A stretch of DNA of 64,000 nt from the NCBI RefSeq assembly GCF_988243305.1, contig NZ_OZ547136.1; one strand, 5' to 3'. Numbering within the stretch: position 1 is the stretch's first letter; each line of letters opens with the position of its first letter. The notes beneath the pieces are model-generated. The model was not told the DNA's origin and searched no databases. It worked only from the letters and a program-made list of their open reading frames with translations. Shown one piece after another: positions 6,380-39,161 of the stretch. The position numbers and the translations under genes were made by a program.

Positions 6380-6561
6380 TCCGTTTAACCCAACAGGGTT
6401 TAATGCTTTGTCGATAGCAGCTCTGTAGGTAGCGTCACCTTCGTATAACTCGTACGTTGTTGGACATGCACCAGGCTGGTCAGCCCGGGCTTTTGAGTCG
6501 CATTTAAGTGTCTGATTTACAGTGGCGGCGTTTGTGTCAGGACTTAGGTAATGACTCCAAC

Positions 6562-7065
6562 TTATTGATAGTGTTTTATGTTCAGATAATGCCCGATGAC
6601 TTTGTCATGCAGCTCCACCGATTTTGAGAACGACAGCGACTTCCGTCCCAGCCGTGCCAGGTGCTGCCTCAGATTCAGGTTATGCCGCTCAATTCGCTGC
6701 GTATATCGCTTGCTGATTACGTGCAGCTTTCCCTTCAGGCGGGATTCATACAGCGGCCAGCCATCCGCCATCCATATCACCACGTCAAAGGGTGACAGCA
6801 GGCTCATAAGACGCCCCAGCGTCGCCATAGTGCGTTCACCGAATACGTGCGCAACAACCGTCTTCCGGAGCCTGTCATACGCGTAAAACAGCCAGCGCTG
6901 GCGCGATTTAGCCCCGACATAGCCCCACTGTTCGTCCATTTCCGCGCAGACGATGACGTCACTGCCCGGCTGTATGCGCGAGGTTACCGACTGCGGCCTG
7001 AGTTTTTTAAGTGACGTAAAATCGTGTTGAGGCCAACGCCCATAATGCGGGCTGTTGCCCGGCAT
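6562..7065 (-). CDS. insB: IS1 InsB (expressed as InsAB' by frameshift)
   Basis: 167-aa IS1 transposase ORF overlapping insA. Confidence 0.9.
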
Positions 7066-7259
7066 CCAACGCCATTCATGGCCATATCAATGATTTTCTG
7101 GTGCGTACCGGGTTGAGAAGCGGTGTAAGTGAACTGCAGTTGCCATGTTTTACGGCAGTGAGAGCAGAGATAGCGCTGATGTCCGGCGGTGCTTTTGCCG
7201 TTACGCACCACCCCGTCAGTAGCTGAACAGGAGGGACAGCTGATAGAAACAGAAGCCAC
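6984..7259 (-). CDS. insA: IS1 InsA
   Basis: 91 aa, [23 protein letters not shown]… zinc-finger/HTH InsA. Confidence 0.9.
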
Positions 7260-7425
7260 TGGAGCACTTCAAAAACGCCATCATACACTAAATCAGTAAG
7301 TTGGCAGCATCACCTAAGTGCTTTTACGATGAATTTCATGATAACTCTCCTTATGACATTAATAAATGCGTTAATCTTAAATCTCACCCAGGTAATATAT
7401 ATCTGAAAATATTTTCAACAACACC

Positions 7426-7473: not shown

Positions 7474-8544
7474 TTATTTAATCCGGGCCATCGCGCTTCT
7501 CAGTGCCAAATCTGCCTCTTCCGTTATCTCCAGACTTTTCTGCAACACCGTTTCTGACCGGGACAGTGCCTGACGTGCTGCCAGCGGTTTCCGGATATGC
7601 TCCATCGTCAGCATCGTGTCCTCGTAGCCCTGCTGACGCCAGGCGTCGGTATGTGCCGACGTGAAACTGAGCAGACCGCCACTGTTGCCACCATCACCTG
7701 CATATTTCAGCCTTTTCCGGGGACGGATCTCAAGGATTGTGGTGTCCGGAAAAGCCTGGCGATCCCATAAAGAACCGTCACTCAGATGCGACACAATCAC
7801 CATATTGCATCCGGCATCGACCAGAGGCGTTACAGGGGTATTTCCCTGCATATTTCGCCATCCTCCCATACCACCATCACCGAACATTGTCCCCTGAACC
7901 TCACGGGGACGGAACAACAGGGGCAGTGCGGCTGACGCAAGCAGAGCCTCTTTCTGCTGTCCGCGGGGCAGACTCTGGATATGCTGAAAAACGGCGTTTT
8001 TCGTGGTTCCGGAACCCAGTTCAGCACGAATGCAGTCAATAATATCCTGCATGCCCCCTTCTGTGGGGTACAGCGACACATACAGCGGTAGCCCGTCTGC
8101 CAGAGCATCTGTATCAAGATAATGATCCATCAGCGCTGTCAGGGGCCCATCTGACAACAACGGCTGAGTCATCGGATTGTCGAAGCCGTTGATTATCGAT
8201 ATATGGCGAAGAAGTGTCGTAAGCAGTGCTCCTGCACGTCCGGGGATCTGGCAGAGGTTCATTGCCTGGAACAATTTTTTCAGCAATGAAAAGTAAACCG
8301 ATCGGTTTACCGACAGCACCTGATTATTCCCAAGATGATCCCAGAGCGCCTCCAGGCGTACGGCAGCTTCTGACAGATCGGGAGAGGCCGCGATAATGGC
8401 ACCATTGAATGCGCCAATGCTGGCCCCTGAAACCATGCTGATCTGTGTACCACACTCTGCCAGTGCCTTAACCACTCCCGCCTGATAAGCGCCCACCGCC
8501 CCACCGCCGGACAGCACCAGCCCTGTTTTTATTTCTATACTCAT
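7474..8544 (-). CDS. Patatin-like phospholipase (356 aa)
   Basis: GGGAVGAYQAG glycine-rich oxyanion motif, GASIGA (GxSxG) nucleophile, DGG catalytic Asp; start overlaps upstream stop (ATGA). Confidence 0.85.
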   Translation of the reverse strand: MSIEIKTGLVLSGGGAVGAYQAGVVKALAECGTQISMVSGASIGAFNGAIIAASPDLSEAAVRLEALWDHLGNNQVLSVNRSVYFSLLKKLFQAMNLCQIPGRAGALLTTLLRHISIINGFDNPMTQPLLSDGPLTALMDHYLDTDALADGLPLYVSLYPTEGGMQDIIDCIRAELGSGTTKNAVFQHIQSLPRGQQKEALLASAALPLLFRPREVQGTMFGDGGMGGWRNMQGNTPVTPLVDAGCNMVIVSHLSDGSLWDRQAFPDTTILEIRPRKRLKYAGDGGNSGGLLSFTSAHTDAWRQQGYEDTMLTMEHIRKPLAARQALSRSETVLQKSLEITEEADLALRSAMARIK

Positions 8545-9446
8545 GCAGCCCCCTTCTGAAATATTTCATCGACCATACTTTCAGAGAGGCGTTCTGCAGA
8601 GCAGAGACGGGGCATGCGAACCGGTAAGTGTTCTGCAGCCTGCGTGGTTGACCAGATCACCGGATGCTGCTCTTCACTGCACCAGTCCCCCAGCCAGTTA
8701 ATCGCGTCATGCCACTCGTTATCTGCCTGCTCCCGGCCCTGACCACCAAGCCAGTCCAGAGTGTTCAGACGCACGGTTGCACTACCGCCACTCTCCTGTG
8801 CCATCTGCGTTAATGCTTTATGTCTGAGAATATCCAGTAGCTGGTTAACCTGGCCTGTTTCGCCCTGACGTATCACATCACCAAACGCGCCCCAGCGAAG
8901 CTCTTCAAGTGCCACATAACAACGTCCGGCAGGGGAAAATGACGCATATCGCCCGGCGCTCCACCAGGAGAATATCTGCTCAAGATGTAACTGCGCCCGC
9001 TGAACCAGGTCAACACGGTGGAGTTTTTCTTCAAGATGATTCAGTTTCTGGTGAACCTGATCGGCCAGGGTGAGTAACTGCTCCCGCGTATCTGCGGAAT
9101 AATGCGCCAGCCTGGCAGTATCACTGACCAGTGAACTGACCCTGTCGTTTACCCGGGTAATCGCGTAGTTTGTGGTGGCAAGTGACGTTGTCAGCTCCGT
9201 CAGCCAGCGCAGGGACGCCTCAACGCCCTGTGCAAGCGAAGCATTGATGGCATTCTGCCGTGCAGCACCTTCGCCGCTCAGCCCCTCTTTTAACCGCCGG
9301 AAGAACGTGCGCTCTCCGGCCGTACGGATATGCTCCTGTGCAACATCAATACCGTTTGCGAAATCAACCACAAATTTTTCAGGAAGACAGGTGAGTACCT
9401 GACATACCCGGTTATCAGCAATTTGTTGAATAAATGGTGAAGTCAC
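8541..9446 (-). CDS. Hypothetical protein, partner of the dynamin-like GTPase (possibly YjcZ-like), 301 aa
   Basis: ORF overlapping both neighbours by 4 bp; no TM segments; YjcZ-like assignment is only by synteny with crfC(yjdA)-yjcZ. Confidence 0.6.
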   Translation of the reverse strand: MTSPFIQQIADNRVCQVLTCLPEKFVVDFANGIDVAQEHIRTAGERTFFRRLKEGLSGEGAARQNAINASLAQGVEASLRWLTELTTSLATTNYAITRVNDRVSSLVSDTARLAHYSADTREQLLTLADQVHQKLNHLEEKLHRVDLVQRAQLHLEQIFSWWSAGRYASFSPAGRCYVALEELRWGAFGDVIRQGETGQVNQLLDILRHKALTQMAQESGGSATVRLNTLDWLGGQGREQADNEWHDAINWLGDWCSEEQHPVIWSTTQAAEHLPVRMPRLCSAERLSESMVDEIFQKGAA

Positions 9447-11827
9447 AGCATTGTCTCCAGTTCTTCCCTTAACGCCTTACTGTCAGTAATGAGCTCAGGA
9501 ACCCTTTCATTTAACGCCTGAAGACGCCCGGTCAGCCGTTCCTGCGCCTGCTGATCGCGTTTATGATCTTCAGAGCTCTGAATCAGCGTGTTACGCAGCT
9601 GTTCAACTTTCTCCCTGAATGTACAGAAAAAGGCATCGATTTCCTGGCGGACGGGCTGGTTAATATCCTGCTCAATGGATGCCTGCAGCTCCCCGAAATA
9701 TGCCCGGGTCAGTGACATCACTTCCTCTCTGACCTTGTTGATATTGATCACGCTGCGGCTCACATCCACACTGTACTCTTTCCAGCCCCAGTCACTGGTG
9801 TTTGCCCATCGACAAAGCGTACCCCAGACACCATCCTGTCGACAGCGACGGGTTACTGTCTCCGTTCTTTCCTCCATAAGCGCGCTCAGATTTGTTTTTA
9901 CTGCGAGCCGGGTCTGTAACTGGCTGACTGCCGGAAAACTGATTTTTACAGTGAAACCTTCATCCTCCAGACGGGCATTGATGCGTCCGGCAATATTTTC
10001 TGTGGCGTACAGGGCCGTACCACGAAAACCTGTTTCAATACCCCTGACGATTTTTTCCAGTTCAGGACGGAACTGTGCTTCAGCCTCACGGTGCAGGCTG
10101 GTCACGGTCGATTCGATTTGCGTCATCAGTTCAAGGGCTTCCCTGCGATCACTGAATTTTATTTCGGGGCTGTCCGGATCAAAGTCCCGCATCCTGTCAT
10201 GCTGATTTCCGGTTCCGAAAATATCGTGAAAGAAAGCGAATGCGTTTCTCTCCCGGGGCTGCGCTGAATTTTCTTCCTCCAGCATTTGCTGTTCTTTGCG
10301 TTTACCGCTTCTGAAATAGTCATTCAGCTCCTCTTCCAGTGAGGTGCAGACCCCCGTCAGTAATTCCCGGGTTCTGGCATCGATCTCCTCCATGGCCATT
10401 CTGACATCAGCGGTCACCTGCTCCTGACAGTCCGCGATTTCCCGGATATCCGCAAGCAGGCTGGTGATATGCGACTGCAGTGACTGAATGCTTTGCTGTA
10501 GCCCCTGATGGCGTAATGACAGATATTCGCTGACATTTTCCGCATTCTGCATCAGTTTTGCGGCGGCAGAATCAACCGCCAGTGCCGCCGCTCTGGAATG
10601 GGAGCTCTGTATGACTTCCGTTATCAGTTGATCGATAAGTGAGCCTTCCCACAGGTCTGTCGCCCCTTCGGTTGCCATTTCACTGTCTTTACAGACGTAT
10701 TCTTTTTTCATGCGACCGAAGGCTTCCCTGACAAAATCATCGACCCAGGCTTCATCAACAGGAAGGGTTCTGTTTTTCCGTAACTCATGAAGCGCACGGT
10801 TAGCCAGGTACGCCTGACGTGATGAGCCTGGATAAACGCGGGAGGCGGGCAGCACATCGCTGTTCAGCATTGCCGGAACTTTCTGGCGTACGGCATCTGC
10901 CCCATCGCCATTGCGGTCTTTCTCATCAAATTTATTGACCAGCACAAACAGGCGGCCAGCTGATACGTCAGCAATGGCATTAAGCTCTTTACGGACGTCT
11001 TCATCCGCTTTTGAGTTCATCTGGGTGTAATCCATCACCGCCAGCACCGCAGAGGCTTTCTGCAGTTGATCCCGCATCATCACTTCCATCTGCGGTTGTC
11101 CGGCCTCATTAGGGCCGGGGGTATCCAGCAGTGTGAGTGTTCCCTGGCATGGATCCATCCCCACCAGATGGCTGAATTCCACGTCGATCACCGGCAGTTT
11201 CTGCACTTCTGCGTATTCATCAAAAGGAAACTCACTCCCCATTGCCGCAGCAAGGCGAACCAGATCGTTTAACGATGCCAGTCCGGTAAAAATTTCCTCC
11301 TCCCCGTGGTATTCATTTTTGAGCCAGCCATCATTTGCCAGAATATCCAGCAGTTCGCAGGTATCCCCGGTTTGCTGCAGGGTCTGTGCGACTTGCTGTC
11401 CTGCCGGGGTGTCGAGTTTTTGTTTCAGTGTGCTTAATAAATTGCGGACGGGCTGAATATGTTCCAGATGGAGGACCGGCTCAGTTTTTCCGGGAACGTG
11501 GCGGATGAGCGTCGGTACAGAGGTCATGGGGCGGTTACGGTTAGGCAGAATTTCCTGCCCCACAATGGCGTTGATGGTGGTTGATTTACCTGCTTTCATC
11601 GTGCCGACAACAGCCAGCACCATCTCCCTGCGGGCGGTTTTGATTTGTTCGCCCTCCAGCTCCTCAATTCTTTTCAGTGCTTTCTGTTTATCAAAAAGCA
11701 GTCTGTTTTCGTTCTTACTGTCAGATAACACATCCGGCTCATCAACCATTTGCCGGAGCAGATTAATGTTCAGTTGCAAAAGTCGGTCGGCTTCATCACA
11801 AAGCAGGGCGATGTTCTTTTCGTGCAT
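9443..11827 (-). CDS. Dynamin-family GTPase, CrfC/YjdA-like bacterial dynamin-like protein (794 aa)
   Basis: G1 GTMKAGKST, G3 DTPG, G4 NKFD; N-terminal GTPase region resembles E. coli CrfC as recalled; long coiled-coil-rich C-terminus. Confidence 0.85.
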   Translation of the reverse strand: MHEKNIALLCDEADRLLQLNINLLRQMVDEPDVLSDSKNENRLLFDKQKALKRIEELEGEQIKTARREMVLAVVGTMKAGKSTTINAIVGQEILPNRNRPMTSVPTLIRHVPGKTEPVLHLEHIQPVRNLLSTLKQKLDTPAGQQVAQTLQQTGDTCELLDILANDGWLKNEYHGEEEIFTGLASLNDLVRLAAAMGSEFPFDEYAEVQKLPVIDVEFSHLVGMDPCQGTLTLLDTPGPNEAGQPQMEVMMRDQLQKASAVLAVMDYTQMNSKADEDVRKELNAIADVSAGRLFVLVNKFDEKDRNGDGADAVRQKVPAMLNSDVLPASRVYPGSSRQAYLANRALHELRKNRTLPVDEAWVDDFVREAFGRMKKEYVCKDSEMATEGATDLWEGSLIDQLITEVIQSSHSRAAALAVDSAAAKLMQNAENVSEYLSLRHQGLQQSIQSLQSHITSLLADIREIADCQEQVTADVRMAMEEIDARTRELLTGVCTSLEEELNDYFRSGKRKEQQMLEEENSAQPRERNAFAFFHDIFGTGNQHDRMRDFDPDSPEIKFSDRREALELMTQIESTVTSLHREAEAQFRPELEKIVRGIETGFRGTALYATENIAGRINARLEDEGFTVKISFPAVSQLQTRLAVKTNLSALMEERTETVTRRCRQDGVWGTLCRWANTSDWGWKEYSVDVSRSVININKVREEVMSLTRAYFGELQASIEQDINQPVRQEIDAFFCTFREKVEQLRNTLIQSSEDHKRDQQAQERLTGRLQALNERVPELITDSKALREELETML

Positions 11828-15101: not shown

Positions 15102-15719
15102 TCAGTTGCGGTTATCGTCAACCGTTGTGCGGTATGCCAGGAGCACGTACTGATCCATCAGATCCGTCAGTGCTGCGCTCTGCCTCTGACGGTTGATGAT
15201 CCATTCCTCCAGCTCTTTTTCTGATTTCCGTTTCAGGTTCTCTTTCCAGTCTTCAAGGCTGTTTCCGGTCATTAAATCAAGCCAGCAAAGCCAGACCAGT
15301 TTGAGGCGCAACTCCGTGCCACCAAACTGACGGAAGAGGCTAATCAGTTTATTTGCCAGAGAACGCTGCCTCAGACGTTCACATTCAGACAGGAGAATGC
15401 CTTCCAGCATCGGATGATGAACCAGCAGATGTTCACTGGTGCATAAATTCACTATCAGATCATCATCCAGGGGCGGCGTGGCCCGTTTGTCAGGGCCATA
15501 AATCAGCCGGTGCAGGCTCTGGGGTACGATGGCAATCTCCGGTTTTTCACCATTGAATGACACCCACCCGGGCGTCAGATTATGGAAGTAGTAGATATTC
15601 GGATGACACACGCCCCAGGATACGGCGTGCCGGGTGAAGCCGGTCAGCCATTTCTGGTAGCTTTCGTGGAGCAGTTCGTAACGGGTCTGATACTGTTGTT
15701 TCATTTTCATATTCCTCAC
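15102..15719 (-). CDS. Hypothetical protein (205 aa) downstream of alpA
   Basis: ORF on the backbone strand; family not recognised. Confidence 0.45.
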   Translation of the reverse strand: MRNMKMKQQYQTRYELLHESYQKWLTGFTRHAVSWGVCHPNIYYFHNLTPGWVSFNGEKPEIAIVPQSLHRLIYGPDKRATPPLDDDLIVNLCTSEHLLVHHPMLEGILLSECERLRQRSLANKLISLFRQFGGTELRLKLVWLCWLDLMTGNSLEDWKENLKRKSEKELEEWIINRQRQSAALTDLMDQYVLLAYRTTVDDNRN

Positions 15720-15798
15720 GGGGATATAACAGGCAGCAGAATGCCGCCGGCAGGCCGGGGATTACGTCTGCTGCGGGTGAACGGATAACGGTCAGAAA

Positions 15799-16005
15799 TT
15801 ACGGACGGGACTGTGCAATACGCGCCTGCAGCCAGGCTTCCACTTCACTTTTCAGCCATCGGGAACTGCGGCCCAGCTTGATGGGGGCCGGAAAGGCCCC
15901 ATCCCTGATGAGTTTGTAAAACCACTTATCGGTCAGGCCAGTCAGTTGAGTGATAAACGCCATGTCGACCATCTGGTCATCCATCAGTGAAACTGGGGTG
16001 GTCAT
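15799..16005 (-). CDS. alpA: AlpA-family transcriptional regulator / excisionase-like protein
   Basis: MTTPVSLMDDQMVDMAFITQLTGLTDKWFYKLIRDGAFPAPIKLGRSSRW… matches AlpA. Confidence 0.8.
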   Translation of the reverse strand: MTTPVSLMDDQMVDMAFITQLTGLTDKWFYKLIRDGAFPAPIKLGRSSRWLKSEVEAWLQARIAQSRP

Positions 16006-16911
16006 GAGAATGTTCCTCCGGATGTTGTTAATCTCAACCGGCGTTGGTGATGAAAACAACGCACCACCTTCACCGGCATAACAACCGGGGAGAAACGTAA
16101 AAAATAATCGGGAATGTGACCGCCAGGAGATAAACGGGGGGATTGCGGTGGCTGAGCCGTACCGGTATGTCGGGTGGTTGTTGCGAAACGATGCTTCCGC
16201 ACGCGATAAAGGAGGGAGGACTTTCGTGAGACAAGGGGAAAACTAGCGTTCTGATAATTGCAGAGTTGTTTTTGAAGGCGGTTGTGGTATATCAGCCTGT
16301 GACCTGTGGGCAGGCGACAGTTATCACTGGTGGGATAATACTGTCTGATTGGTATTATAAATATATAAGAGAGATCAAACACATGAGATCAAACACATGA
16401 GTTCATATATGTGAAATAAATCTGTGAGTGTGATCAGCAGACCAGTCTACCCAGTAGCAACAGATTGCGTTGTACTCACAGGGTTATCCCTGATAACTGG
16501 CGTATAACCTGCGTACATAAAACGTACCTGCAATGCACCTGAACAGAGTGCATTAAGCATCCGCCTGAGCGGTAAACGTATCCGATCTGGTGAGTGACAG
16601 TCTGAGAGCATTCTCAGTAATCGCCCCCTTGTATCCTGGAAATTGGTTAAGATAACAGCGATTAGATTTGGCAAGGTGTATGCAGCCAGCAGCTTAACAT
16701 CTCAGCTAACTGGCTGGTTACCTTCAGGTTGTCGCAATGGCATCGGACATCCGGTGTCGGATAACTAAACGTAGCGTTAAGGCGATATTGCTGAGAGACC
16801 GGTTAAGTGGTTGCACGGGAGTAATGAGTTTGGGGAGGGCACCAGAATGCCAGGTTGGTGCGGTATGCTGACAGCATCCTGTTAACCGCAGCATAAAGTA
16901 ATGAGAGGCTA

Positions 16912-17124
16912 ATGGAAGTTAAAACCAAAGAAGACTGGCTGTATCAGCTCCGTCGTTGTTCATCCCGGGAGACACTGGAAAAAGTGATTTCCCACACACG
17001 TTATAAACTTACCCCTGCGGAGCTGGAAGCCTTCAACTCTGCGGTCGATCACCGGCTGGCAGAACTGACAATGAACAAGCTTTACGATCGCGTGCCGGCT
17101 TCAGTCTGGAAATATGTCATCTGA
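16912..17124 (+). CDS. Hha/YmoA-family nucleoid-associated modulator
   Basis: 70 aa; …[14 protein letters not shown]…VPASVWKYV closely parallels Hha/Cnu. Confidence 0.8.
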
Positions 17125-17720
17125 GCGTTCGGTAATCACAACGGCATCGCGCCAGGTGTTATCCGCTTTGTGATTCTTATTGGCTCTTCTCAGGTTATTA
17201 AAAGCTGAATATGTTCCTGTTGTCGGGAACCAGGATAATGTCGGGAACGTTAAGCTGTATAACGACAACAAAGAATTCGAAATCAAAAGGGAATGGTGTA
17301 CGGAGGTGTGGACGGTAATGGGCCGATTTTCGGGCATTACCGACCTCTGCTGAGGTTTTCTCGTATTTCTGGGGATCCGGTGAGTTACTGTCACTGTCTG
17401 GCACAGCAAGCGCAGAGGCGGCGGGGCGCTTTGCTCCGCTGATTCCGGATAATTCCTCCCCTGTAACCTACCGCAACAGTACAAATACACTGACGCCTGA
17501 AACGACAGCCAGAATCAGCACAAGCCACAATCCCTGCACACCGTTTTGCGTATCACCATAACGCCTCCTCACAGCCTTACCCGTAACCGGTTTTTTACAT
17601 TAAAAAAACAACGCTGGGAATTCAATCGTCAGTCCGGAGACGACAGTCGGGTTATCACAGAGTGCCTGAGACAGTGTCCTGCCGGAGGTCACCTCAGGGA
17701 CTCTGCACATTTTTTACAGC

Positions 17721-18326
17721 GTGGCTATTCCGTATGAACCATACGGAGATTTAACCATGACCTACAAATACAACCCCTTCTGGCAGCAACGTATTCGTGA
17801 GACGGTGCGGCACGCACTGAATGTTCATCCCCGCCTGACGGCATTGCGGGTTGACCTGCGTCTCCCGGATGTACCGGCAGCAACGGACGCAGCTGTGATA
17901 TCCCGCTTCATCAATGCCCTGAAAGCCCGAATCGACGCTTACCAGAAACGTAAGCATCGGGAAGGTAAACGCGTGCATCCCACAACCCTGCATTACGTCT
18001 GGGCCCGGGAGTTTGGGGAGTGCAAAGGTAAAAAACACTATCACCTGCTGCTGCTGGTCAACCGGGATACCTGGTGTCGTGCCGGTGATTACCGCGCTCC
18101 GGGGTCACTGGCCGGGATGATTAAACAGGCCTGGTGCAGTGCCCTGGGAGTGGATGCCGGACGTTATGACACGCTGGCACATTTTCCGGTCAGGCCGGCG
18201 GTGTGGCTGGAACGCGATGATGACACCGGCTTTCAGCAGGTGCTGGAGCGTGCTGACTATCTGGCGAAGGAGAGTACCAAAGCTTACGGCACCGGTGAGC
18301 GCAACTTTGGCTGCAGTCGTGGCTGA
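17721..18326 (+). CDS. YagK/YfjJ-family (inovirus Gp2-like) protein with HUH-like motif
   Basis: HYHLLLLVN His-hydrophobic-His motif; family assignment from memory; start may be the internal Met at 17757. Confidence 0.55.
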   Translation: MAIPYEPYGDLTMTYKYNPFWQQRIRETVRHALNVHPRLTALRVDLRLPDVPAATDAAVISRFINALKARIDAYQKRKHREGKRVHPTTLHYVWAREFGECKGKKHYHLLLLVNRDTWCRAGDYRAPGSLAGMIKQAWCSALGVDAGRYDTLAHFPVRPAVWLERDDDTGFQQVLERADYLAKESTKAYGTGERNFGCSRG

Positions 18327-18455: not shown

Positions 18456-19057
18456 TTGCCTGCGTGTCGTCTGGCGGTAAGGAACCACACTATGTACGCA
18501 AAATCTTTTCTCGCACTTGATGGCAACGGACGTCTGACCGGTGCCCGTACCGCACAGACCGCACCTTATGCTTACTACACCTGCCACCTTTGCGGCAGTG
18601 CACTCAGATACCACCCGCAGCACGACACGGAACGTCCCTGGTTTGAACACACTGACGACGGGCTGACGGAGCACGCGCAGCAATGTCCTTATGTCAGGCC
18701 GGAACGCAGAGAAATACGGTTGATTAAACGTCTGCAGCAATTCGTCCCGGATGCCTTACCCGTGGTACGTAAAGCCAGCTGGTACTGCAGGCAATGTCAC
18801 CACGATTATTATGGGGAGCAGTACTGCACACACTGCCAGACCGGGCGCTTCAGTGAGGACGGGGAGCAGAATGAACGGTATAAAAACGGGGCTGGGGATC
18901 ACGCCGGGTGAGCACATTATCAGTGCCGACTCTGCGCTCAGCAGAAATATCCGGCATTGTTTCTGCCTTTCCTGTCATGGCCGGTTGATTCTGCAGACAG
19001 ATGCTCAGGGGGCGTGGTTTGAGCACGATTTACATGCCCTGAGTGAGCAACAGAAGG
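18456..19057 (+). pseudogene. Disrupted gene for a Cys-rich protein with repeated C..C…WFEH modules; frameshifted and cut by IS66
   Basis: Two overlapping ORFs in different frames each carry CxxC…WFEH(D/T) modules; 3' end runs into the IS66 terminus. Confidence 0.4.
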
Positions 19058-19094
19058 GTAAGCGTGCAGCAAGAACCGTATTGACGGGGATGTG

Positions 19095-20633
19095 TTATTC
19101 AGTCGGCAGTGCTACGCGCCAGGGGAGCAGTTCGCCGACCCGGTTTATCGGCCAGTCGGCTATGACGTCAAGGACATAGCGGAGGTAGCTTTCTGGCTCC
19201 ACTCCGTTCAGTTTGCACGTCCCGATCAGGCTGTACAGCAGCGCTCCCCGCTCTCCTCCATGATCCGAACCGAAGAACAGGTAGTTTTTGCGGCCCAGAC
19301 TGACCATCCGCAACGCATTTTCAGCGATGTTATTGTCCGCCTCAGCCCAGCCATCATCTGCATAGTACGTCAGCGCCGGCCACTGGTTCAGGGCGTATGC
19401 GAACGCTTTCGCCAGTTCTGAGTGTCGCGACAGGGTTTTCATCTTTTCACGCAGCCAGCTTTCCAGGGATTTCAGCAGCGGTTTCGTTTTCAACTGACGT
19501 TCGGCAAGGCGCTGTTCCGCCGTCATTCCCCTTATCTCTGCCTCGATGGCGTACAGTTCGCCGATCCGTTTCAGCGCTTCCTCCGTCAGGGCTGACGGGG
19601 TGCGAACGTGCACATCGTGGATTTTACGGCGGGCGTGAGCCCAACAGGCGGCTTCCGTTATCCGGCCATCCCGGTACAGCTCGTTGAACCCGGCGTATGC
19701 ATCCGCCTGCAGTACACCACTGAACCCCGCAAGATGGGTCTGCGGATGGATGCCTTTTCTGTCCGGGCTGTAAGCGAACCACACCGCCGGCGCCAGCGTT
19801 GACCCGGCGTTACGGTCGTCACGAACATACGCCCACAACCGCTCGGTCTTCGTTTTCTTATTGCCTGGCAACAGCACCGGGACAGGCGTGTCATCAACAT
19901 GGAGCTTACCGTCAGTCAGCACATAGCCATGAAGCGCCTCTTCCAGCGGAGACAGCTGCCGGCAGCATGCATCCACCCAGCCCGACAGCAGTGAACGGCT
20001 CAGCTCCACACCTTGCCGGCCGTATATTTCTGACTGGCGATACAGCGGGGTGTGCTCTGCATACTTCGAGGTCAGCACGCGGGCCAGCAGCCCCGGTCCG
20101 GCGATACCCCGCTCGATGGGCCGCGAAGGTGCAGGTGCCTGCACGATGGCATCGCACTGAGTACAGGCATGTTTTTCCCGTACCGTCCGGATAACCCGGA
20201 AGGCGCTACGCATCAACTCCAGCTGTTCGGCGATATCCTCGCCCAGATAGCTCAGTGAACCGCCGCAGTTCGGGCAGCACGGCGCCGCAGGCAACAGTCG
20301 CTTTTCGTCACGGGGTAGTGATTCAGGGAACGGCTTACGGGTGCGGGTCTGACGCAACGGACGCTGTACTGCCGGGTCATACACCCTACCAGTCAGCGTA
20401 TCGCTCTCTTTCTGAAGCCGGTTCAGATCGGCTTCCATTTGTGCGATACGGCGGGAGACTTTTTCGGAACGACTGCCGAAGTTCATCCGGCGGAGTTTAT
20501 CCAGCTGCGCCTGCAGATGGTCTATTTCGCGCTCCCGGTTGCTCAGCTTTTCCTGCAGGGCGTGGATCAGCGCTTCCTGTTCGGCCAGGCGCTGTTTCAG
20601 CAGGAAAATGTCGTCAGAAGAGATGTCGTTCAT
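19095..20633 (-). CDS. IS66-family transposase TnpC (complete, about 512 aa)
   Basis: Full-length TnpC with CPNCGG zinc motif; start taken at MNDISSDD. Confidence 0.9.
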
Positions 20634-21730
20634 ACATCGTGTATTTTTCGCCGGGCATGGACCCAGCACGCAACTTCTGTCTGTGCACCACCTTCACGTT
20701 TGGCACTGAACAGCCGATCGTAACCGCTGAATGCATCCGCCTGCAGGATACCCCGGAAGGGACGAAGGTGTTGTACCGGATGTTTTCCCTGCCTGTCTGG
20801 TGAGTAGGCGAACCAGACCGCCGGTGGCTCTGATGAGCCCGCATTCCGGTCATCCCGGACATACGTCCAGATGCGTCCTGTTTTTGCCTTTTTTCTGCCC
20901 GGTGTCAGCACTTTTACCGGTGTGTCGTCAGTGTGAACCTTGCGGGTGTTCATCACGTAACGGTACAGGGCATCATTCAGCGGAGTCATTAACTGGCAGC
21001 ACGCGTCAACCCAGTTGGAGATTAATGCACGGCTCAGTTCGGCACCCTGTCGGGCAAAGATTTCACTCTGACGATACAGTGGCAGGTGTTCGCAGTATTT
21101 TCCCGTTAACACGCGGGCAAGTAATCCGGAGCCCGCGATGCCGCGCGCTATCGGGCGGGACGGCGCTGGCGCTTCAACTATACAGTCACATTTTGTACAG
21201 GCTTTTTTTACCCGAACAGTGCGGATCACTTTCAGGGCGCTACTCACCAGTTCCAGCTGCTCAGCACTGACTTCACCCAGATAATCCAGCTCACTGCCAC
21301 ACTCCGGGCAACAACTTTCTTCAGGCTCCAGGCGGTGTATTTCACGGGGAAGATGTGCTGGTAACGGACGACGATGACGTGACTGTCGCAACTGGCGGGG
21401 AACCTGCGGGTCATCCTCACGCCCACTGTAACGATCGCTTTCCTGTTCGCGTTGTTTCAGTTGGGCCTCAGCCTGTTCAACCTCACGCTGCAGTTTTTCA
21501 GAACGGGTACCGAACAGCATCCGGCGCAGTTTTTCTATCTGGGCCCTCAGATATTCTATTTCCCGCTCCTCCTCTTCGATCTTTTCTTCGGCACGTGCCA
21601 GTGCAGAGCGCAGGAAGGCCTCCGTCTCTTCAACCAGACTCAGTTGCAGATCTCTCTGACGGAGGGCTTCAGCCTGCTCAGAGAGCAGCCTTTCCAGCTC
21701 AGTGATACGAATGAGGTATTTCCGACTCAT
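20630..21730 (-). pseudogene. IS66-family transposase TnpC, C-terminally truncated (N-terminal 366 aa of a different copy)
   Basis: Ends at …[12 protein letters not shown], the point homologous to the middle of the complete TnpC; its stop overlaps the next start. Confidence 0.8.
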
Positions 21731-21760
21731 GACCGTTTTTATAATCCGGCCATGACATTT

Positions 21761-22111
21761 TTACAACATTGTCAGTGCGTTAAGACGGGATGTTTTTGGC
21801 TGACGCCAGTCCAGCTTATCGAGGAGCATTGCCAGCTGCGAGCGGGTAATGGATACCTTACCGTCACGCACCGCAGGCCAGATAAACAGGCCTTCCTCCA
21901 GGCGTTTGGTGAACAGGCACAGACCATCAGCATCAGCCCAGAGGATTTTAATCATGTCACTCCGTCGGCCACGGAAGATGAACAGGTGACCGGAGAAGGG
22001 GTTCTCATCCAGCACATGTTGTACCTGTTCCCCCAGACCGTTGAAGGATTTACGCATATCAGTAACGCCGGCAACCAGCGAGATTCGAGTGTCTGATGGG
22101 AGCGAGATCAT
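21761..22111 (-). CDS. IS66-family TnpB (Orf2)
   Basis: 116-aa IS66 Orf2-like protein overlapping tnpA. Confidence 0.85.
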   Translation of the reverse strand: MISLPSDTRISLVAGVTDMRKSFNGLGEQVQHVLDENPFSGHLFIFRGRRSDMIKILWADADGLCLFTKRLEEGLFIWPAVRDGKVSITRSQLAMLLDKLDWRQPKTSRLNALTML

Positions 22112-22533
22112 CGCCCCCTCCCGGTCAGTTCACGGATCAACACCGTGAGCAGCTCTGGTGAAGGATTTTCCAGCGTCATGTTACCGTGGCGGAACTCAAC
22201 TTTACAGGAACTGGCACTGACTGTGCTTTGTGAAGGAGTGGATAAAAGCGGAGTAAGAGCCGCCATAGGCTCTTTCTGCTCATCAGGCGTTATCTCAACA
22301 GGTAATAATTCAACGCCAGCGTCAGAAGAGGTTGTTACCGGAAGACGCCGCGATATACGCCCTTCGTTCTGCCAGAGCCTGAGCCATTTGAACAGGAGGT
22401 TATCATTGATATCGTGTTCCCTGGCAATACGGGCAACAGAGGCTCCTGGTTGCAAAGCCAGTTTAACCATTTGAAGTTTAAACTCATTTGAAAATGTTCT
22501 GCGGGGTTCTGCGGATAATATTTTCTGTTCCAT
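22108..22533 (-). CDS. IS66-family TnpA (Orf1, HTH)
   Basis: 141-aa IS66 Orf1-like protein. Confidence 0.85.
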   Translation of the reverse strand: MEQKILSAEPRRTFSNEFKLQMVKLALQPGASVARIAREHDINDNLLFKWLRLWQNEGRISRRLPVTTSSDAGVELLPVEITPDEQKEPMAALTPLLSTPSQSTVSASSCKVEFRHGNMTLENPSPELLTVLIRELTGRGR

Positions 22534-23194
22534 AACAGGTGTCCACTAGTTGATGAAAAGGTGGGCACCTACGTTACCAATACTGGCTTAATGGCTACAT
22601 ACGGCGGTCAGTTTACGCTTACCATGTATCTGGCGAGTGAAGCTTTATGTCGTGTTCTGGCGTGTCCTGTGTTAGTTAGAACACGCCATCGATGGTCAGC
22701 AGGTTCATATTGCACCAGAGCGGATACAGCGTGGTGTTATGTCAGGGCTGCGCTGTTTACGTGAACACGTGGCGTATGGCCCCGCTTCCTGGCCGCTGCT
22801 GGGCATGGATCACGGCGCGACAAAGGGGCGACTACCTGGCAGCATGTGTCCAGCCGGTTCACAATCTGGTGAAGGTTCCTTACGCTCATGGGCCATACTG
22901 ATAATTCACCAGGCCATCATTTCCAGAGGAAGACGCCGTTTGCGTAGCGTGACAGTGTCGGACTCTTCAGGGCTGTGGGTAATCAGTTCCGGGGCAAGAT
23001 AGTCGCAGAGGGTTACGCAGAGAATAGTAACTGGACACTGGATCGATCAACCGATCCTTAACTGAGCGGCATGACAGCTTTCTGATGGTTTTTTTTTGAT
23101 AATCTTCACATTGTGCTTCTTTTCTGTTGGATAATCTTTGTACTTGATGGTGTACTAGGTATCCCATTATGCAGTTAAGTGAAGGTGATTAAAA

Positions 23195-24112
23195 ATGCAA
23201 TGTGAATTTAAAGGGGTCATATCAGCATTACCCACTCCTTATGACCAATCCCAGCAAACCGATATGGAGAGTCTTCGAAAACTGATCCGTTTTAATATCG
23301 AACAAAATATTAAGGGATTGTATGTTGGAGGCTCTACTGGAGAAGCATTTCTTCAGAATGTTGCAGAGCGAGAAAAAATTCTTGAAACAGTAGCCGATGA
23401 ATCAGATGGAAGACTGACACTTATAGCGCATGTGGGCGGAATCAGTACGGCAGAAAGCGAGGTACTTGCAAAAGCTGCAAAAAAATACGGATATCATGCT
23501 ATATCTGCTGTTACTCCATTTTATTATCCTTTTTCATTTGAAGAGCATTGTATCCATTACAGGAAGATTATTGATTCTGCAGATGGACTTCCGATGGTAG
23601 TTTATAATATACCGGCTCTTAGCGGAGTGCGTTTTTCTTTAGATCAGATAAATGAGCTTGTCACAATACCCAGGGTTTGTGCATTAAAACAGACATCCGG
23701 TGATTTATTCCAGATGGAACAAATCAAAAGGAATCATCCAGAGCTTGTGTTATATAATGGTTACGATGAAATATTTGCATCAGGGTTAATTGCAGGTGCA
23801 GATGGGGGAATCGGTAGTACATATAATATAATGGGGTGGCGTTATCTTGAAATATTTGAAGCAGTCAAAAACAATGATGTGATTAAGGCGAAGGAAATGC
23901 AAGTAGCCTGTAACCAGGTTATTGACACTCTTATTCAGAGTGGTGTCCTGGCAGGTATAAAAACTCTTCTTTACTATATGGGGATTATAAATACTCCTGT
24001 ATGCAGAAGTCCTTTTTCTCCGGTAAAGGAAAAGAATCTGGATGTATTATCAAAACTTGCAGAGCGACTGTTCGAAGAACATGACAGAAACAAAAAAATG
24101 AAAATAATCTGA
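23195..24112 (+). CDS. nanA: N-acetylneuraminate lyase (NanA paralog)
   Basis: High similarity to E. coli NanA across the full length (…[12 protein letters not shown]…[14 protein letters not shown]…). Confidence 0.9.
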
Positions 24113-24145
24113 ATAATTGCAAGATTGTTATATAGGTGAAAATGA

Positions 24146-25021
24146 ATGATAACACTGGCTGTTGATATAGGAGGAACGAAAATTTCAGCGGCGTTGATAT
24201 CTGATGACGGTTCATTTTTGCTGAAAAAACAGATATCAACACCTCATGAAAGATGTCCTGACGAAATGACAGGGGCTTTACGTCTACTGGTTTCTGAAAT
24301 GAAGGGAACAGCGGAGCGATTTGCAGTAGCATCAACAGGGATTATTAATAATGGAGTATTGACAGCTCTGAATCCAGACAATCTTGGAGGGCTGAAAGAG
24401 TATCCTCTGAAAAATATAATGGAAGATATAACTGGTTTAAATGGAAGTGTGATAAATGATGCCCAGGCAGCCGCATGGGCAGAATATACAGTTTTGCCGA
24501 AAGAAATTTGTGATATGGTTTTTATAACCGTTTCTACGGGGGTTGGAGGGGGAATTGTAGTTAACAGAAAATTATTAACAGGTGTTTCTGGATTAGCCGG
24601 ACATGTTGGGCATATATTGTCCGGAGTAACGGATACAGAATGTGGATGTGGTCGTCGGGGATGCGTTGAAGCGGTTTCATCTGGTCGGGCCATCATGGGG
24701 GCAGCAAAAAATAAACTTGCAGGATATAGCACCAAATATATTTTTGAATTAGCGAGACAGGGATATAAGGAAGCAGAATTTTTGACAGAGCGTTCTGCCA
24801 GTACTATTGCTGAATTAATAGTAAGTTTAAAATTACTGCTTGATTGTCAGGTTGTTGTTGTCGGAGGAAGTGTTGGACTTGCTGATGGGTATGTTCAGAA
24901 AGTGTCGAAACATCTTTCCATATATTCTGAAATTTGTAATGTAATGCTGTTTCCGGCATATTTCAGAAGTGACTCTGGTCTTATTGGTGCAACTCTTTGG
25001 GACCGGGATTGTATTACTTAA
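24146..25021 (+). CDS. nanK: N-acetylmannosamine kinase (NanK-like, ROK family)
   Basis: ROK motifs, N-terminal DIGGTK, CGCGRRGC zinc site. Confidence 0.85.
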   Translation: MITLAVDIGGTKISAALISDDGSFLLKKQISTPHERCPDEMTGALRLLVSEMKGTAERFAVASTGIINNGVLTALNPDNLGGLKEYPLKNIMEDITGLNGSVINDAQAAAWAEYTVLPKEICDMVFITVSTGVGGGIVVNRKLLTGVSGLAGHVGHILSGVTDTECGCGRRGCVEAVSSGRAIMGAAKNKLAGYSTKYIFELARQGYKEAEFLTERSASTIAELIVSLKLLLDCQVVVVGGSVGLADGYVQKVSKHLSIYSEICNVMLFPAYFRSDSGLIGATLWDRDCIT

Positions 25022-25069
25022 AGTAATACTCCAGTGTATTATAAATCCGCTATTATTGTGAGGTTTAAT

Positions 25070-26536
25070 ATGGACTCCTGTATTCAGAAAAAGCAGGTTT
25101 GGTATAAGCATCTTTCACCCAGACAGTGGAAGATATTCGGTGCGGCATGGACAGGTTATTTACTTGATGGTTTTGATTTCGTTCTGATATCTCTGGTTCT
25201 TACAGAGGTTCAGCATGAATTCGGCTTGACGACAATAGAAGCGGCAAGCCTTATTTCCGCTGCTTTTATTTCTCGATGGTTTGGGGGGCTTGCTATTGGC
25301 GCTTTATCGGACAAGATGGGGCGCAGGATGGCAATGGTTTTAAGTATAGTGCTATTCTCTCTCGGAACCCTTGCCTGTGGTCTGGCTCCTGGATATGCAG
25401 TGATGTTTATTGCTCGCATTGTTATTGGGCTTGGTATGGCAGGTGAATATGGCTCAAGTGTAACATATGTTATCGAAAGCTGGCCTGTTCATCTCAGAAA
25501 CAAGGCAAGTGGTTTTTTAATTTCTGGATTTTCTATTGGGGGAGGTTTAGCTGCACAGGTTTATAGCATTGTAGTACCACTATGGGGCTGGCGTTCTCTT
25601 TTCTTTGTCGGCATGCTTCCAATATTATTTGCTTTTTATCTTCGCAAGAATCTTCCGGAGTCTGATGACTGGCAAAAAAGGCAACAAGAGAATAAACCCG
25701 TCAGAACAATGGTGGATATTCTGTACAGAGAAAAGAATAAATACATAAATATTCTTCTGTCTTGTATTGCATTTGCATGTCTATATGTTTGTTTTTCAGG
25801 CGTCACTGCAAACGCTGCTTTAATCACAGTTATGGCATTGTGCTGTGCGGCTGTTTTTATCAGTTTTATATATCAGGGTATGGGGAAAAGATGGCCAACA
25901 GGCATTATGTTGATGCTTGTGGTTATGTTCTGTTTCCTCTACGGATGGCCACTGCAGGCTTTTCTTCCTACATGGCTTAAGGTTGATATGCAGTATTCAC
26001 CAGAAACTGTTGCTCTCATATTTATGCTGGCAGGTTTTGGCTCTGCAGCTGGAAGTTGTATAGGTGGTTTTATGGGGGACTGGCTTGGAACCCGAAAAGC
26101 ATATGTTATATCACTTCTTATCGGTCAGCTTGTTATTATCCCCGTTTTTCTTGTGGACCGGGACTATGTATGGTTACTTGGCCTTCTAATCTTTACTCAG
26201 CAGGTTTTTGGTCAGGGGATTGGTGCTCTGGTGCCGAAAATAATCAGTGGTTATTTTAATGTGGAGCAGCGTGCGGCAGGACTGGGGTTTATTTATAATG
26301 TAGGTTCACTTGGTGGAGCATGTGCGCCTATTCTTGGTGCAGTTGTTGCGTCTCATACAAGTCTTGGTACAGCAATGTGTTCTCTTGCTTTTATCTTAAC
26401 ATTTGTTGTTCTTGTCCTTATTGGTTTTGATATGCCATCACGTGTACAGAGATGGATCCATCCAGAAGCTGCGCTTGAATATGATACTGTCGATGGAAAA
26501 CCTTTTTATGGAGCAAGAAAAAAGAATGTTGCATAA
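25070..26536 (+). CDS. nanT: Sialic acid MFS transporter (NanT paralog)
   Basis: Strong similarity to NanT throughout (…[12 protein letters not shown]…GEYGSS…TYVIESWP…). Confidence 0.9.
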
Positions 26537-26545
26537 GAATAACGG

Positions 26546-27376
26546 ATGCTATCAGGGAATAAAAAAATGATTCATTACAGGGAGAATATATATTCTCTTG
26601 ATAATTATGAGCGTTATATAACTGACAGTTCGCTATTTGAGAATACTGGCGATGGCATAATATATACAGGTATTGTGCCCCTTATTACAGTTGTTGAGCC
26701 TGTTGTATCTAATCAACATAGTGTGCTGATTATACCTGGAGGTGGATACAGGAGGATTGTTTATGAAAGAGAGGGACTTGATGTTGGCAGATGGATAGCA
26801 GGTCAGGGATATACGGCATTTATTCTTTCTTACAGAATGCCCTCCGTTAATGGTTATTATTCCTTTGCAGATGCGAAGAATGCCCTGAACTTTATTTCTT
26901 ACTGGGCCGGAATGTCGGAGAGAACATTTAAGAGTGTTGGATGTATGGGGTTTTCGGCAGGTGGTCATCTTGCTGGATATATTACTCATCTCCATTATGA
27001 GGAAGAGACTTCTGTGCGTCCTGACTGGATGGCTCTGATATATCCAGTTATATCTCTTGACAGGAGTATTGCTCATCAGGGATGCCGGAAACGTCTTCTG
27101 GATGCAGGTGAAAGTGAATATTCAGCCAGTCTTGAAAATAGTGTTACAGAGTATATGCCACCAGTCTTTATTGTGCATGCAACAGATGATAAGGATGTTC
27201 CAGTTATTCATTCTCTGAGATATTTTAACTCTATTCGGGATAAGGGACATCATGCAGAAGCTCATTTTTTTGATAAGGGAGGTCATGGATTTGGTGTATC
27301 CGGAAAAAATGGATATCCGATAGAAAAATGGCAAAGCCTGCTTCTGGAATGGCTTGCGGAACATAAGTTTTATTGA
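26546..27376 (+). CDS. Alpha/beta-hydrolase esterase (putative sialate O-acetylesterase), copy 1
   Basis: GFSAGG (GxSxG) and HGF motifs; nan-cluster context; start may be the internal Met at 26567. Confidence 0.65.
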   Translation: MLSGNKKMIHYRENIYSLDNYERYITDSSLFENTGDGIIYTGIVPLITVVEPVVSNQHSVLIIPGGGYRRIVYEREGLDVGRWIAGQGYTAFILSYRMPSVNGYYSFADAKNALNFISYWAGMSERTFKSVGCMGFSAGGHLAGYITHLHYEEETSVRPDWMALIYPVISLDRSIAHQGCRKRLLDAGESEYSASLENSVTEYMPPVFIVHATDDKDVPVIHSLRYFNSIRDKGHHAEAHFFDKGGHGFGVSGKNGYPIEKWQSLLLEWLAEHKFY

Positions 27377-27421
27377 GAAATCAAATTACAAGTGATAAAT
27401 ATATTTAATGATGAGGCATTT

Positions 27422-28132
27422 ATGAAAAAATATTATCCACTATTAACTGTAATTCTTCTTGGTTTACCTTTGTGCTCTCAGGCATTAACTCTTAATCTAC
27501 GTGGGGGATACAGAAGCGCCAGTCACGCTTATGAAACGTTGATTCAGGTTAGTCAGGGGTGGAATAATGGTTGGTGGGCAAGTTTTGAGTCAAACACCTG
27601 GAATACAATTCACAACAATGAAAATGAATTGTTTGCACTCAATTATAATAAAATAGATATAAATAAAACATATAAAATAGATGACAAATGGGCTCTAATC
27701 CCAGGGATTCAGACACAATGGATGTCAGCAGGAAGTCAGTATAACCCTTATCTGAAAATTTCGTATCAGGCAACGCCAGATCTTAATCTGGCCTTACGCT
27801 ATCGCTATGACTGGAAAGCTTTCCGACAGACGGATTTAGATGGCAACAGGGCGCGTAATGATCAGCATCAGTTTGATGGTTATGTGACATACAAAATTAA
27901 TGATTCATGGTTGTTTGCATGGCAGACCACGGTATATACGAAGGTTAATAATTTCAAATATGGGAATCATAAAAAAACAGCAACTGAAAATGCATTTGTT
28001 CTGCAATATAAAATGTCACCGGTGTTCACCCCATATATAGAATATGATTACTTGGATAAACAAGGGGTGTATAAGGGGAAAGATAATAAACATGAAAATA
28101 GTTACCGTGTCGGTGTTCTGATTAATTTTTAA
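27422..28132 (+). CDS. KdgM/NanC-family outer-membrane porin
   Basis: Signal peptide MKKYYPLLTVILLGLPLCSQA, Tyr-rich beta-barrel ending in F. Confidence 0.75.
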   Translation: MKKYYPLLTVILLGLPLCSQALTLNLRGGYRSASHAYETLIQVSQGWNNGWWASFESNTWNTIHNNENELFALNYNKIDINKTYKIDDKWALIPGIQTQWMSAGSQYNPYLKISYQATPDLNLALRYRYDWKAFRQTDLDGNRARNDQHQFDGYVTYKINDSWLFAWQTTVYTKVNNFKYGNHKKTATENAFVLQYKMSPVFTPYIEYDYLDKQGVYKGKDNKHENSYRVGVLINF

Positions 28133-28144
28133 AAGGTGATTACA

Positions 28145-29254
28145 ATGAAAGTGAAAAACTTTATATATCTTCCCTTCTGCTTGTTTATTGGAACGTCGGT
28201 AGCCGGAGCTTTACCGGAAATTCCTGAACCATTTAAATATGGTGTAGGAGGGATCGAGAATGGTAAAATATATATAGGACTGGGAAGTCTGGGAAATAAC
28301 TGGTATATGATAGATACAAACCAGAGTGAAAAAAAATGGACTAAGATAGCGCAATGGCCGACAGTTCCCAGAGAGCAGGCAACAGCTACTATTATTGATG
28401 GTAAGATCTATGTATTTGGAGGAATTGGAAAAGATAAAAGTGGAGTCATAACCTTACAAAAAGATGTCTATTCCTATGATATTGCTAAAGATAAATGGGA
28501 AAAATTGATGACCCGTCCCCCTGTATCTCTTGCCGGTCATGTTTCTTTTATCCATAATGGTCATGCGGTATCTACTGGTGGTGTAAATGAGAATATTTTT
28601 AATGGATACTTTTCAGATGTCGAGTTATCAAAAGGGAATTCCGCGCTGACAGAGAAAGTCAACAGGGATTATTTTAGTAAACCTGCTGATGATTATTTTT
28701 TAAATAATCATATAATTTCTTATGACCCGTCAAAAAACCAGTGGAAGAACCTGGGAACGACTCCATTTCCGGGAACTGCTGGTTCATCGGTGATTTTTGC
28801 AGAACAGCAAATTTATATACTGGGAGGGGAGAGAAAACCGGGGCTTCGTTCTGTTAGATCCTGGACGGGGGAGCTTTCGCATGATCGAATTAAATGGTTT
28901 GAACTTCCACCAGTAGCTTCACCCGAGGGGGTGTCAGGAGCATATGCCTCTGTTATTGATGGAAATATCTTTCTGGCCGGTGGTGCATATTTCCCGGGGG
29001 CGGCAGAAAAGTATAGCAATGGTGAATACTGGTCTCATAAAGGACTGGATAAAGCCTATTCAAAAGAGATATATCAGCTAATAAAAAATGACTGGAAAAA
29101 AGTTGGTTCTTTGCCGGAAGGACTTGCTTATGGTGTAAGCCTGCCCTGGCAGGGGGGGATGCTCATTCTGGGGGGGGAGAAAAAAGATGGTAAAGCTGTT
29201 TCAGATGTTATTTATCTGAAAAAAAATGACAAACAAATAAAGATTGTTAAATAA
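28145..29254 (+). CDS. nanM: N-acetylneuraminate mutarotase (NanM/YjhT-like, Kelch repeats)
   Basis: Signal peptide plus repeated Kelch-type (IYV/I F GG) blades. Confidence 0.8.
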   Translation: MKVKNFIYLPFCLFIGTSVAGALPEIPEPFKYGVGGIENGKIYIGLGSLGNNWYMIDTNQSEKKWTKIAQWPTVPREQATATIIDGKIYVFGGIGKDKSGVITLQKDVYSYDIAKDKWEKLMTRPPVSLAGHVSFIHNGHAVSTGGVNENIFNGYFSDVELSKGNSALTEKVNRDYFSKPADDYFLNNHIISYDPSKNQWKNLGTTPFPGTAGSSVIFAEQQIYILGGERKPGLRSVRSWTGELSHDRIKWFELPPVASPEGVSGAYASVIDGNIFLAGGAYFPGAAEKYSNGEYWSHKGLDKAYSKEIYQLIKNDWKKVGSLPEGLAYGVSLPWQGGMLILGGEKKDGKAVSDVIYLKKNDKQIKIVK

Positions 29255-29315
29255 CTGTAATGCAGGTGACTGTATTAGTTGTTCAGTCACCTGAGTTATT
29301 TTAATGGGGTTTATA

Positions 29316-30239: not shown

Positions 30240-30274
30240 TATTTATGGTGACTACCTGGTGAAGCGTCGAGTAA

Positions 30275-31009: not shown

Positions 31010-31105
31010 ATATTGATTTATATGGATTAGAGCAAATGAGTTTTTAATTTAACACTTTCTTTTAATAATGAAAATATTTAATTAAATCTATTATGTAAAG
31101 GGGGA

Positions 31106-32139: not shown

Positions 32140-34882
<2,743 letters not shown>

Positions 34883-39098: not shown

Positions 39099-39161
39099 AA
39101 TTCTCCATGACGATGTCACATGGTGACACCGCCTGTAAGGGAAGAGGTTTTATCTTTAAAT

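Follow-up and report, generated by a model that had tools for sequence, protein, structure and literature searches.

A predicted Hha2-type member of the Hha/YmoA family encoded in the backbone of an Escherichia coli island

A 64,000-nucleotide stretch of DNA, referred to here as the window, holds a short open reading frame that raises two questions: whether its product is a Hha/YmoA-family modulator, and whether such a modulator would control the genes of the island on which it lies. The original prediction called for a 70-aa protein at 16912-17124, and these coordinates are exact. The frame lies on the plus strand and runs from an ATG start codon to a TGA stop codon that is counted within the interval.

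16912..17124, plus strand: intact allele of a hha2-type gene, from the open reading frame and family profiles
16903..16908, plus strand: Shine-Dalgarno-like GAGAGG, 3 nt before the hha ATG, read from the sequence

The predicted 70-aa protein has a mass of 8.36 kDa and a pI of 8.82, compared with 8.63 kDa and 8.79 for Hha. The gene has a GC content of 49%, and the GAGAGG motif is kept in eight of the 11 aligned related copies. Open reading frames that overlap hha on the opposite strand are short (30-41 aa) and unremarkable. A separate 68-aa open reading frame on the minus strand (17198-17404) is located between hha and the downstream YagK/YfjJ gene; many related loci carry it as an annotated 65-aa hypothetical protein, and Pfam has no match for it.

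Profile searches, structure-database searches and alignment were used to place the protein in a family. The Pfam HHA profile (PF05321) matches at E = 5e-28 across 56 of its 57 positions, with 97.6 bits where the cut-off is 25, and the NCBIfam Hha model NF008191 gives 109.2 bits where 90 is required. Sequence matches in the PDB are Hha (1jw2, E = 5e-23), YmoA (2k5s, E = 6e-22) and Cnu (2jqt, E = 9e-10), and the Salmonella Hha from the H-NS complex (4icg) was matched as well. The proposed similarity to Hha-family proteins was borne out by formal alignment with MAFFT, which gave 57% identity to K-12 Hha, 57% to YmoA (its sequence taken partly from the PDB-search alignment) and 48% to Cnu. Judged by its sequence, the product clearly belongs to the Hha/YmoA family. 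Assignment as Cnu/YdgT was considered and rejected: the equivalog model NF007703 scores 46.6 bits against a cut-off of 101, and the identity is 48%. To our knowledge, the Hha/YmoA family is restricted to Enterobacteriaceae, and the host of the window is enterobacterial, as its core flanks are E. coli and the segment from ulaE through cpdB is 98-99.8% identical to E. coli genomes.

The AlphaFold2 model of the protein, built on a 29-sequence alignment, has a mean pLDDT of 80 and consists of four helices (residues 6-13, 19-30, 35-54 and 63-66). Foldseek superposes the model on chains C and D of 4icg, the crystal complex of Hha with H-NS(1-46), with TM scores of 0.90-0.94 and rmsd values of 0.8-0.9 Å, and on 1jw2 with a TM score of 0.80; the search returned no unrelated folds with an E value below 4. 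The fold thus superposes on H-NS-bound Hha and the family profiles score above their cut-offs, so the Hha-like label was upheld. Alignment pairs Glu23 of the window protein with Glu25 of Hha, Asp46 with Asp48 and Cys16 with Cys18, and all three residues are conserved. According to a passage in PMC4519777 that cites de Alba et al. 2011, Hha Glu25 is critical and Asp48 essential for H-NS binding. The window protein would be expected to bind H-NS in the same way.

The closest named relative is Hha2 of enteroaggregative E. coli strain 042 (EC042_4516, WP_000453331.1), also a 70-aa protein, with 96% amino acid identity. At the nucleotide level the identity to 042 hha2 (L005:13505-13717) is 94.4% over 213 of 213 nt. 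Prieto 2016 (PMC4864382) scored hha2 by BLASTN at a threshold of at least 90% identity over at least 80% of 042 hha2, and the window allele falls within that definition. Two changes are private to the window allele, Leu13, which restores the core Hha residue, and the C-terminal Ile70. The shorter Hha3 product of 042 (EC042_4796) is 79% identical to the window protein. In E. coli strain 142 the gene is identical at 213 of 213 nt and is annotated 'hha: hemolysin expression modulator Hha' (WP_087901481.1). By sequence, then, the open reading frame is assigned as an intact allele of the published Hha2 type, and RefSeq already lists this very protein as Hha.

Relatives of the gene are common in E. 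coli and on plasmids. Blastn found a match in 3746 of 5426 complete E. coli genomes, with at least 80% of the gene matched in 2366, and the matches are usually annotated as hha or 'Hha/YmoA family nucleoid-associated regulatory protein'. In a large protein collection, clusters at least 90% identical to the window protein are all E. coli 'Hha', and the next tier, at 64-82% identity, comes from Salmonella, Klebsiella, Citrobacter, Yersinia, Hafnia and others. Hha homologues occur on at least 5000 plasmid records, and among those listed 3924 are on conjugative plasmids. A 79%-identical Hha lies inside an IncI1-like conjugative transfer region in the order TraW/TraX, exclusion protein, Hha, DotM_C. 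The closest relatives outside islands are plasmid-borne. The 64-82% identity to plasmid-type Hha, set against 57% to core Hha, places the island copy closer to the mobile-element Hha lineage.

The gene was predicted to be island-encoded, and the map of the window agrees. An island of ~50 kb (window ~525-50600) is inserted between ulaD (3-524) and ulaE (~50.6 kb), carries a tyrosine integrase gene and is followed by E. coli core genes from ulaE through rpsF to cpdB, with an Rfam rpsF leader at 52828. The window contains no tRNA gene, and the insertion is not at a tRNA gene. Annotation of the island was transferred from strain BR1220, which is 98-99% identical over 812-35677, and supplemented by Pfam scans.

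0.8-6 kb: DUF4942, DUF957, DUF5983, CbtA/CbeA, DUF987, JAB/RadC, antirestriction, DUF932 and DUF905 genes
~6547-7314: IS1, inside the island
7474-11827, minus strand: genes for a patatin-like phospholipase, YjcZ/RdcB and a 794-aa dynamin-family GTPase
12.0-13.0 kb: YeeP-like GTPase gene
13.0-13.9 kb: AT-rich gene for a 305-aa hypothetical protein
15.1-15.7 kb: gene for a 205-aa hypothetical protein
15799..16059, minus strand: AlpA-family HTH regulator gene (Pfam Phage_AlpA, E = 1.4e-8), divergent from hha across ~850 bp
17721..18326, plus strand: YagK/YfjJ ('inovirus Gp2 family') gene (Pfam YagK_YfjJ_C, E = 1.2e-47), the next same-strand gene after hha
18456..18911, plus strand: first zinc-ribbon gene (DUF7828/Zn_ribbon_11), from Pfam DUF7828 (E = 1.7e-30) and the BR1220 annotation
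19095-22534: IS66-family element with a full TnpC gene, a second truncated TnpC gene, tnpB and tnpA, 2 kb downstream of hha
23195-32095: sialic-acid-type catabolic cluster, 37-41% GC
32.1-35.7 kb: IS3/IS629 remnants and a group II intron (Rfam Intron_gpII at 32613-32699; ltrA open reading frame at 32703-34226)
36139-43719: AT-rich block with an MFS transporter, an amidohydrolase, an M20 peptidase, a PLP-dependent enzyme and a divergent sigma-54 enhancer-binding activator
43.7-49.3 kb: IS remnants and a HerA-like fragment
49322-50503, minus strand: P4-type tyrosine integrase gene (Arm-DNA-bind_3/Phage_integrase), adjoining ulaE

Homologous loci annotate the AlpA-family gene as a 207-nt CDS. A second zinc-ribbon gene is interrupted by the IS66 element at ~19057-19095. 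The sialic-acid-type cluster encodes an N-acetylneuraminate lyase, a ManNAc kinase, an MFS transporter, two alpha/beta hydrolases, a KdgM-family porin, an epimerase, NanR and a sialate O-acetylesterase. The AT-rich block at 36139-43719 had no good match in complete E. coli genomes among the megablast matches listed. PADLOC found no match for the patatin, YjcZ/RdcB and dynamin cluster. A role of hha or its neighbors in a defense system was set aside, PADLOC having given a weak LeoBC-like match for the GTPase only.

Several other features of the window are recorded alongside this map. Different islands occupy the ulaD-ulaE junction in other strains. An ALIL frameshift pseudoknot belonging to an IS is present at 35226-35342, and a full-length STnc100 small RNA (Rfam, 103 bits) lies on the minus strand at 46464-46662 in a very AT-rich stretch (31% GC at 45-46 kb). 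A second IS1 is found at 55267-56035 in the core region downstream of rplI, where strain CUPS04 has 4.7 kb of accessory genes.

The position of hha within the island is conserved. The module made up of the alpA-like gene, divergent hha, the YagK/YfjJ gene and the zinc-ribbon genes recurs in 10 of 11 related loci, the YagK/YfjJ gene being the exception at locus L010. These loci are at different chromosomal sites, with related islands adjoining setC in BR1220 and near cadB-lysS in strain 142, and they carry different cargo, Ag43-YeeR-IrmA plus T6SS in 042 and Afa/Dr fimbriae in strain 142. Conservation of the module across sites and cargoes indicates that hha is a backbone gene of the island family and not cargo. 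The published hha2/hha3 trait of a variable map position on acquired DNA flanked by IS elements is found here too. The flu-yeeR-irmA cluster is absent from the island; the slot between the GTPase and DUF905 genes holds dynamin, YjcZ/RdcB, patatin and IS1, with no Ag43 gene. Prieto 2016 describes the linkage of hha2/hha3 to flu-yeeR-irmA as a statistical association that is not absolute (PMC4864382). The dynamin, YjcZ/RdcB and patatin cluster fills the backbone slot that Ag43-YeeR-IrmA holds in other islands. As an island-borne gene whose product is 96% identical to published 042 Hha2 (PMC4864382), the window copy agrees with its description as a horizontally acquired Hha paralogue.

Alignment of 10 loci revealed a length difference in the DNA between the AlpA-family gene and hha.

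16602..16790: 189-bp indel polymorphism, ~120 bp upstream of the hha ATG

The 189-bp segment is flanked by 7-bp direct repeats (CTGAGAG), its ends form an imperfect inverted repeat of ~15 bp, and its RNA fold has a z-score of -2.3. The window, strain 142 and BR1220 have it, and the 042 hha2 locus and six further loci lack it. The median is 1 copy per genome, and many genomes also have a second chromosomal site that matches part of the segment at 88%. A multicopy MITE was rejected for this segment, given ~1 copy per genome, and an indel polymorphism is more likely. A strict sigma-70 scan of 15700-17800 returned 0 sites. The relaxed scan gave weak candidates only, 550-800 nt upstream of hha, and none was convincing in the 850-bp upstream region. 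Rfam had nothing nearby at the gathering threshold and nothing at E ≤ 1 in 15700-17800.

The average GC content of E. coli is ~51%. Measured in 200-bp bins, the 16.2-17.4 kb interval, within ~700 bp of hha, has 43-50% GC, which places the flanks slightly below the E. coli average and makes them mildly AT-rich only. The nearest clearly AT-rich blocks are at 13.0-14.0 kb (33-43% GC), ~3 kb off, and at 23-32 kb (37-41% GC), ~6 kb off beyond IS66, and parts of 36-47 kb are also strongly AT-rich. The statement that the gene lies next to AT-rich DNA therefore needs to be narrowed: the island does carry AT-rich blocks, but they are 3 and 6 kb from the gene and the immediate flanks are at 43-50% GC. 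A tblastn search with an H-NS sequence found no hns paralogue in the window at E ≤ 1.

Selection on the gene was assessed in an alignment of the window copy with 11 related copies, taken mostly in even steps down the blastn ranking. Full-length open reading frames are present in five members of this sample (the window, strain 142, ETEC4069, 042 hha2 and F5656C1). Five of the copies share a 14-nt deletion after codon 5 and are annotated as 49-59 aa products or as pseudogenes, the O104:H4 2009EL-2050 copy has a 1-nt frameshift and is an annotated pseudogene, and 042 hha3 has had its 5' end replaced.

L002:28085-28297, L003:38646-38844, L011-L013, L009:1501-1712 and L006:13133-13345: broken island hha copies, with a deletion, a frameshift or a replaced 5' end

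Nei-Gojobori comparisons among the four distinct intact alleles gave 6-13 synonymous versus 1-3 non-synonymous differences, with dS = 0.13-0.33, dN = 0.006-0.019 and dN/dS = 0.02-0.10. These ratios indicate that the full-length alleles are maintained by selection on the protein, and the N-terminus has been lost in many lineages. The many frameshifted or 5'-truncated sister copies indicate that the function is often dispensable. Because decayed copies are common in the sample, the presence of hha2/hha3 by PCR or BLAST overstates the number of functional copies.

The function of such paralogues has been studied in strain 042, where hha2 expression is a little lower than that of hha and hha3 expression is far lower (PMC4864382). 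All three genes, hha, hha2 and hha3, individually modulate the ag43 gene EC042_2242, whose expression changes when hha2 or hha3 is deleted, and the other two ag43 alleles, including the one adjoining hha2, are unaffected (PMC4864382). The duplicated flu-yeeR-irmA region is de-repressed more than 2-fold in the hha hha2 double mutant and likewise in an hns mutant (PMC6480617). The irmA_4509 gene, which adjoins hha2, is raised in the hha hha2 double mutant and does not respond to hns (PMC9431211). There is overlap between the genes most up-regulated in the double mutant and those of an hns2 mutant, and most of these genes were probably acquired horizontally (PMC5861252). Published 042 phenotypes come mostly from hha hha2 double mutants.

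Taken with this literature, the open reading frame probably encodes a functional, horizontally acquired Hha/YmoA protein of the Hha2 type that acts via H-NS/StpA. The product would be an 8-kDa four-helix protein that, like Hha, has no DNA-binding domain of its own. Its acidic patch of Glu23 and Asp46 most likely docks onto the N-terminal dimerization domain of H-NS or StpA, and its basic face would then reinforce the H-NS nucleofilaments that silence AT-rich, horizontally acquired DNA. As a gene carried in the island backbone, hha2 would raise the cellular pool of Hha-type co-repressor. Control of the island's own cargo, as the original prediction proposed, is plausible by analogy with 042. 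That the preferred targets include genes of the same island, namely the AT-rich cargo at 13-14, 23-32 and 36-47 kb, is possible rather than probable; within that cargo, the AT-rich sialic-acid cluster is a plausible H-NS/Hha target.

A working Hha need have no targets of its own on the island, and could simply add dosage to the core Hha/Cnu pool while hitch-hiking in the backbone. The fold and contact residues shared with core Hha would suit such a redundant spare, as would the action of the three 042 paralogues on one common ag43 allele with the two others unaffected (PMC4864382), and the sister copies have decayed often enough to suggest that selection is weak in many lineages. A spare is nevertheless somewhat unlikely, as intact alleles keep dN/dS at 0.02-0.10 even at dS up to 0.33, position and synteny are kept across island variants with different cargo, and loss of hha and hha2 together de-represses irmA_4509, the neighbor of hha2 (PMC9431211). 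The gene could also have an intact-looking open reading frame and have lost its expression. Detection of no strong promoter, the indel 120 bp upstream, the expression of 042 hha3 far below hha (PMC4864382) and the breakage of roughly half of the sampled sister copies all point that way. Against it, 042 hha2 is expressed only slightly below hha (PMC4864382), the window frame is full length with a Shine-Dalgarno motif and has an identical, annotated counterpart in another strain, and its substitutions relative to other intact alleles are overwhelmingly synonymous. A silent or decaying gene is very unlikely on this evidence.

Hha has been described as the toxin of a TomB-Hha pair, and an island Hha might in principle inhibit growth and thereby aid retention of the island. 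The cysteine targeted in Hha (Cys18) is conserved as Cys16, and Hha is toxic when overexpressed and has been linked to genes of the CP4-57 and DLP12 prophages, alpA among them (PMC2408971). The surroundings of the gene do not fit a toxin-like stabilizer. A tblastn search with K-12 TomB had no match in 16060-16911, its best match elsewhere in the window having E = 0.12, and the pairing of hha with an upstream tomB partner was rejected. No plus-strand open reading frame longer than 44 aa is present upstream of hha, PADLOC gave no match, and a CbtA/CbeA toxin-antitoxin pair is already present on the island. A stabilizer of this kind is extremely unlikely, and a co-silencer acting via H-NS/StpA is the preferred reading.

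An extension of the co-silencer reading concerns the neighbor of hha. The conserved divergent pairing of hha2 with the AlpA gene could be functional, in which case H-NS and the island-encoded co-silencer would jointly set how readily AlpA and the integrase drive excision and how readily the cargo is expressed. In vivo, core Hha is associated with regions of the CP4-57 prophage, and an hha mutant shows altered alpA expression (PMC2408971); in Shewanella, excision of the CP4So prophage is under H-NS control (PMC8034616). The pairing is unlikely to work in this way, but if it did, hha2 would be a self-encoded 'stealth' or immobility switch and more than an extra dose of Hha.

The observation behind the original prediction is real, its interpretation is supported and the type of gene was already known. 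The result is a correct label for a regulatory gene that a widespread family of E. coli islands carries in its backbone. It has been proposed that additional Hha copies mark pathogenic clones and co-silence island genes, and the present analysis does not go beyond that picture in function. Its modest addition, from a small spread sample, is the strong purifying selection on intact alleles next to many broken sisters.

The window protein can be compared with several known Hha systems. Core Hha of E. coli and Salmonella (1jw2, 4icg) is alike in fold, size, pI, the Glu25/Asp48/Cys18 residues and one identical 14-residue block. Unlike the window copy, to which it is only 57% identical, core Hha is encoded at the acrB-maa locus and its gene is preceded by tomB. 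Cnu/YdgT and YmoA also belong to PF05321 and bind H-NS/StpA, and YmoA is encoded by a Yersinia core gene. Plasmid-borne Hha proteins (64-82% identity) are likewise on mobile DNA and are closer to the window protein than is core Hha (57%), but their neighbors differ, and the window gene is in a chromosomal integrative island and not on a plasmid. Hha3 and the other 5'-truncated island copies occupy a like position in the backbone and are ~90% identical at the nucleotide level over the C-terminal two thirds, whereas their 49-59 aa products lack helix 1 and the window copy is full length. The nearest system is Hha2 of 042, from which the window protein differs by three substitutions (Leu13 for Phe, Pro35 for Leu and Ile70 for Thr). 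The backbone order of the 042 locus is alike (alpA-like gene, divergent hha, YagK/YfjJ and zinc-ribbon genes), without the 189-bp upstream segment seen in the window. The two islands differ in what the backbone carries, Ag43-YeeR-IrmA and T6SS in 042 and, in the window, the dynamin/YjcZ/patatin and sialic-acid-type genes at the ulaD/ulaE site.
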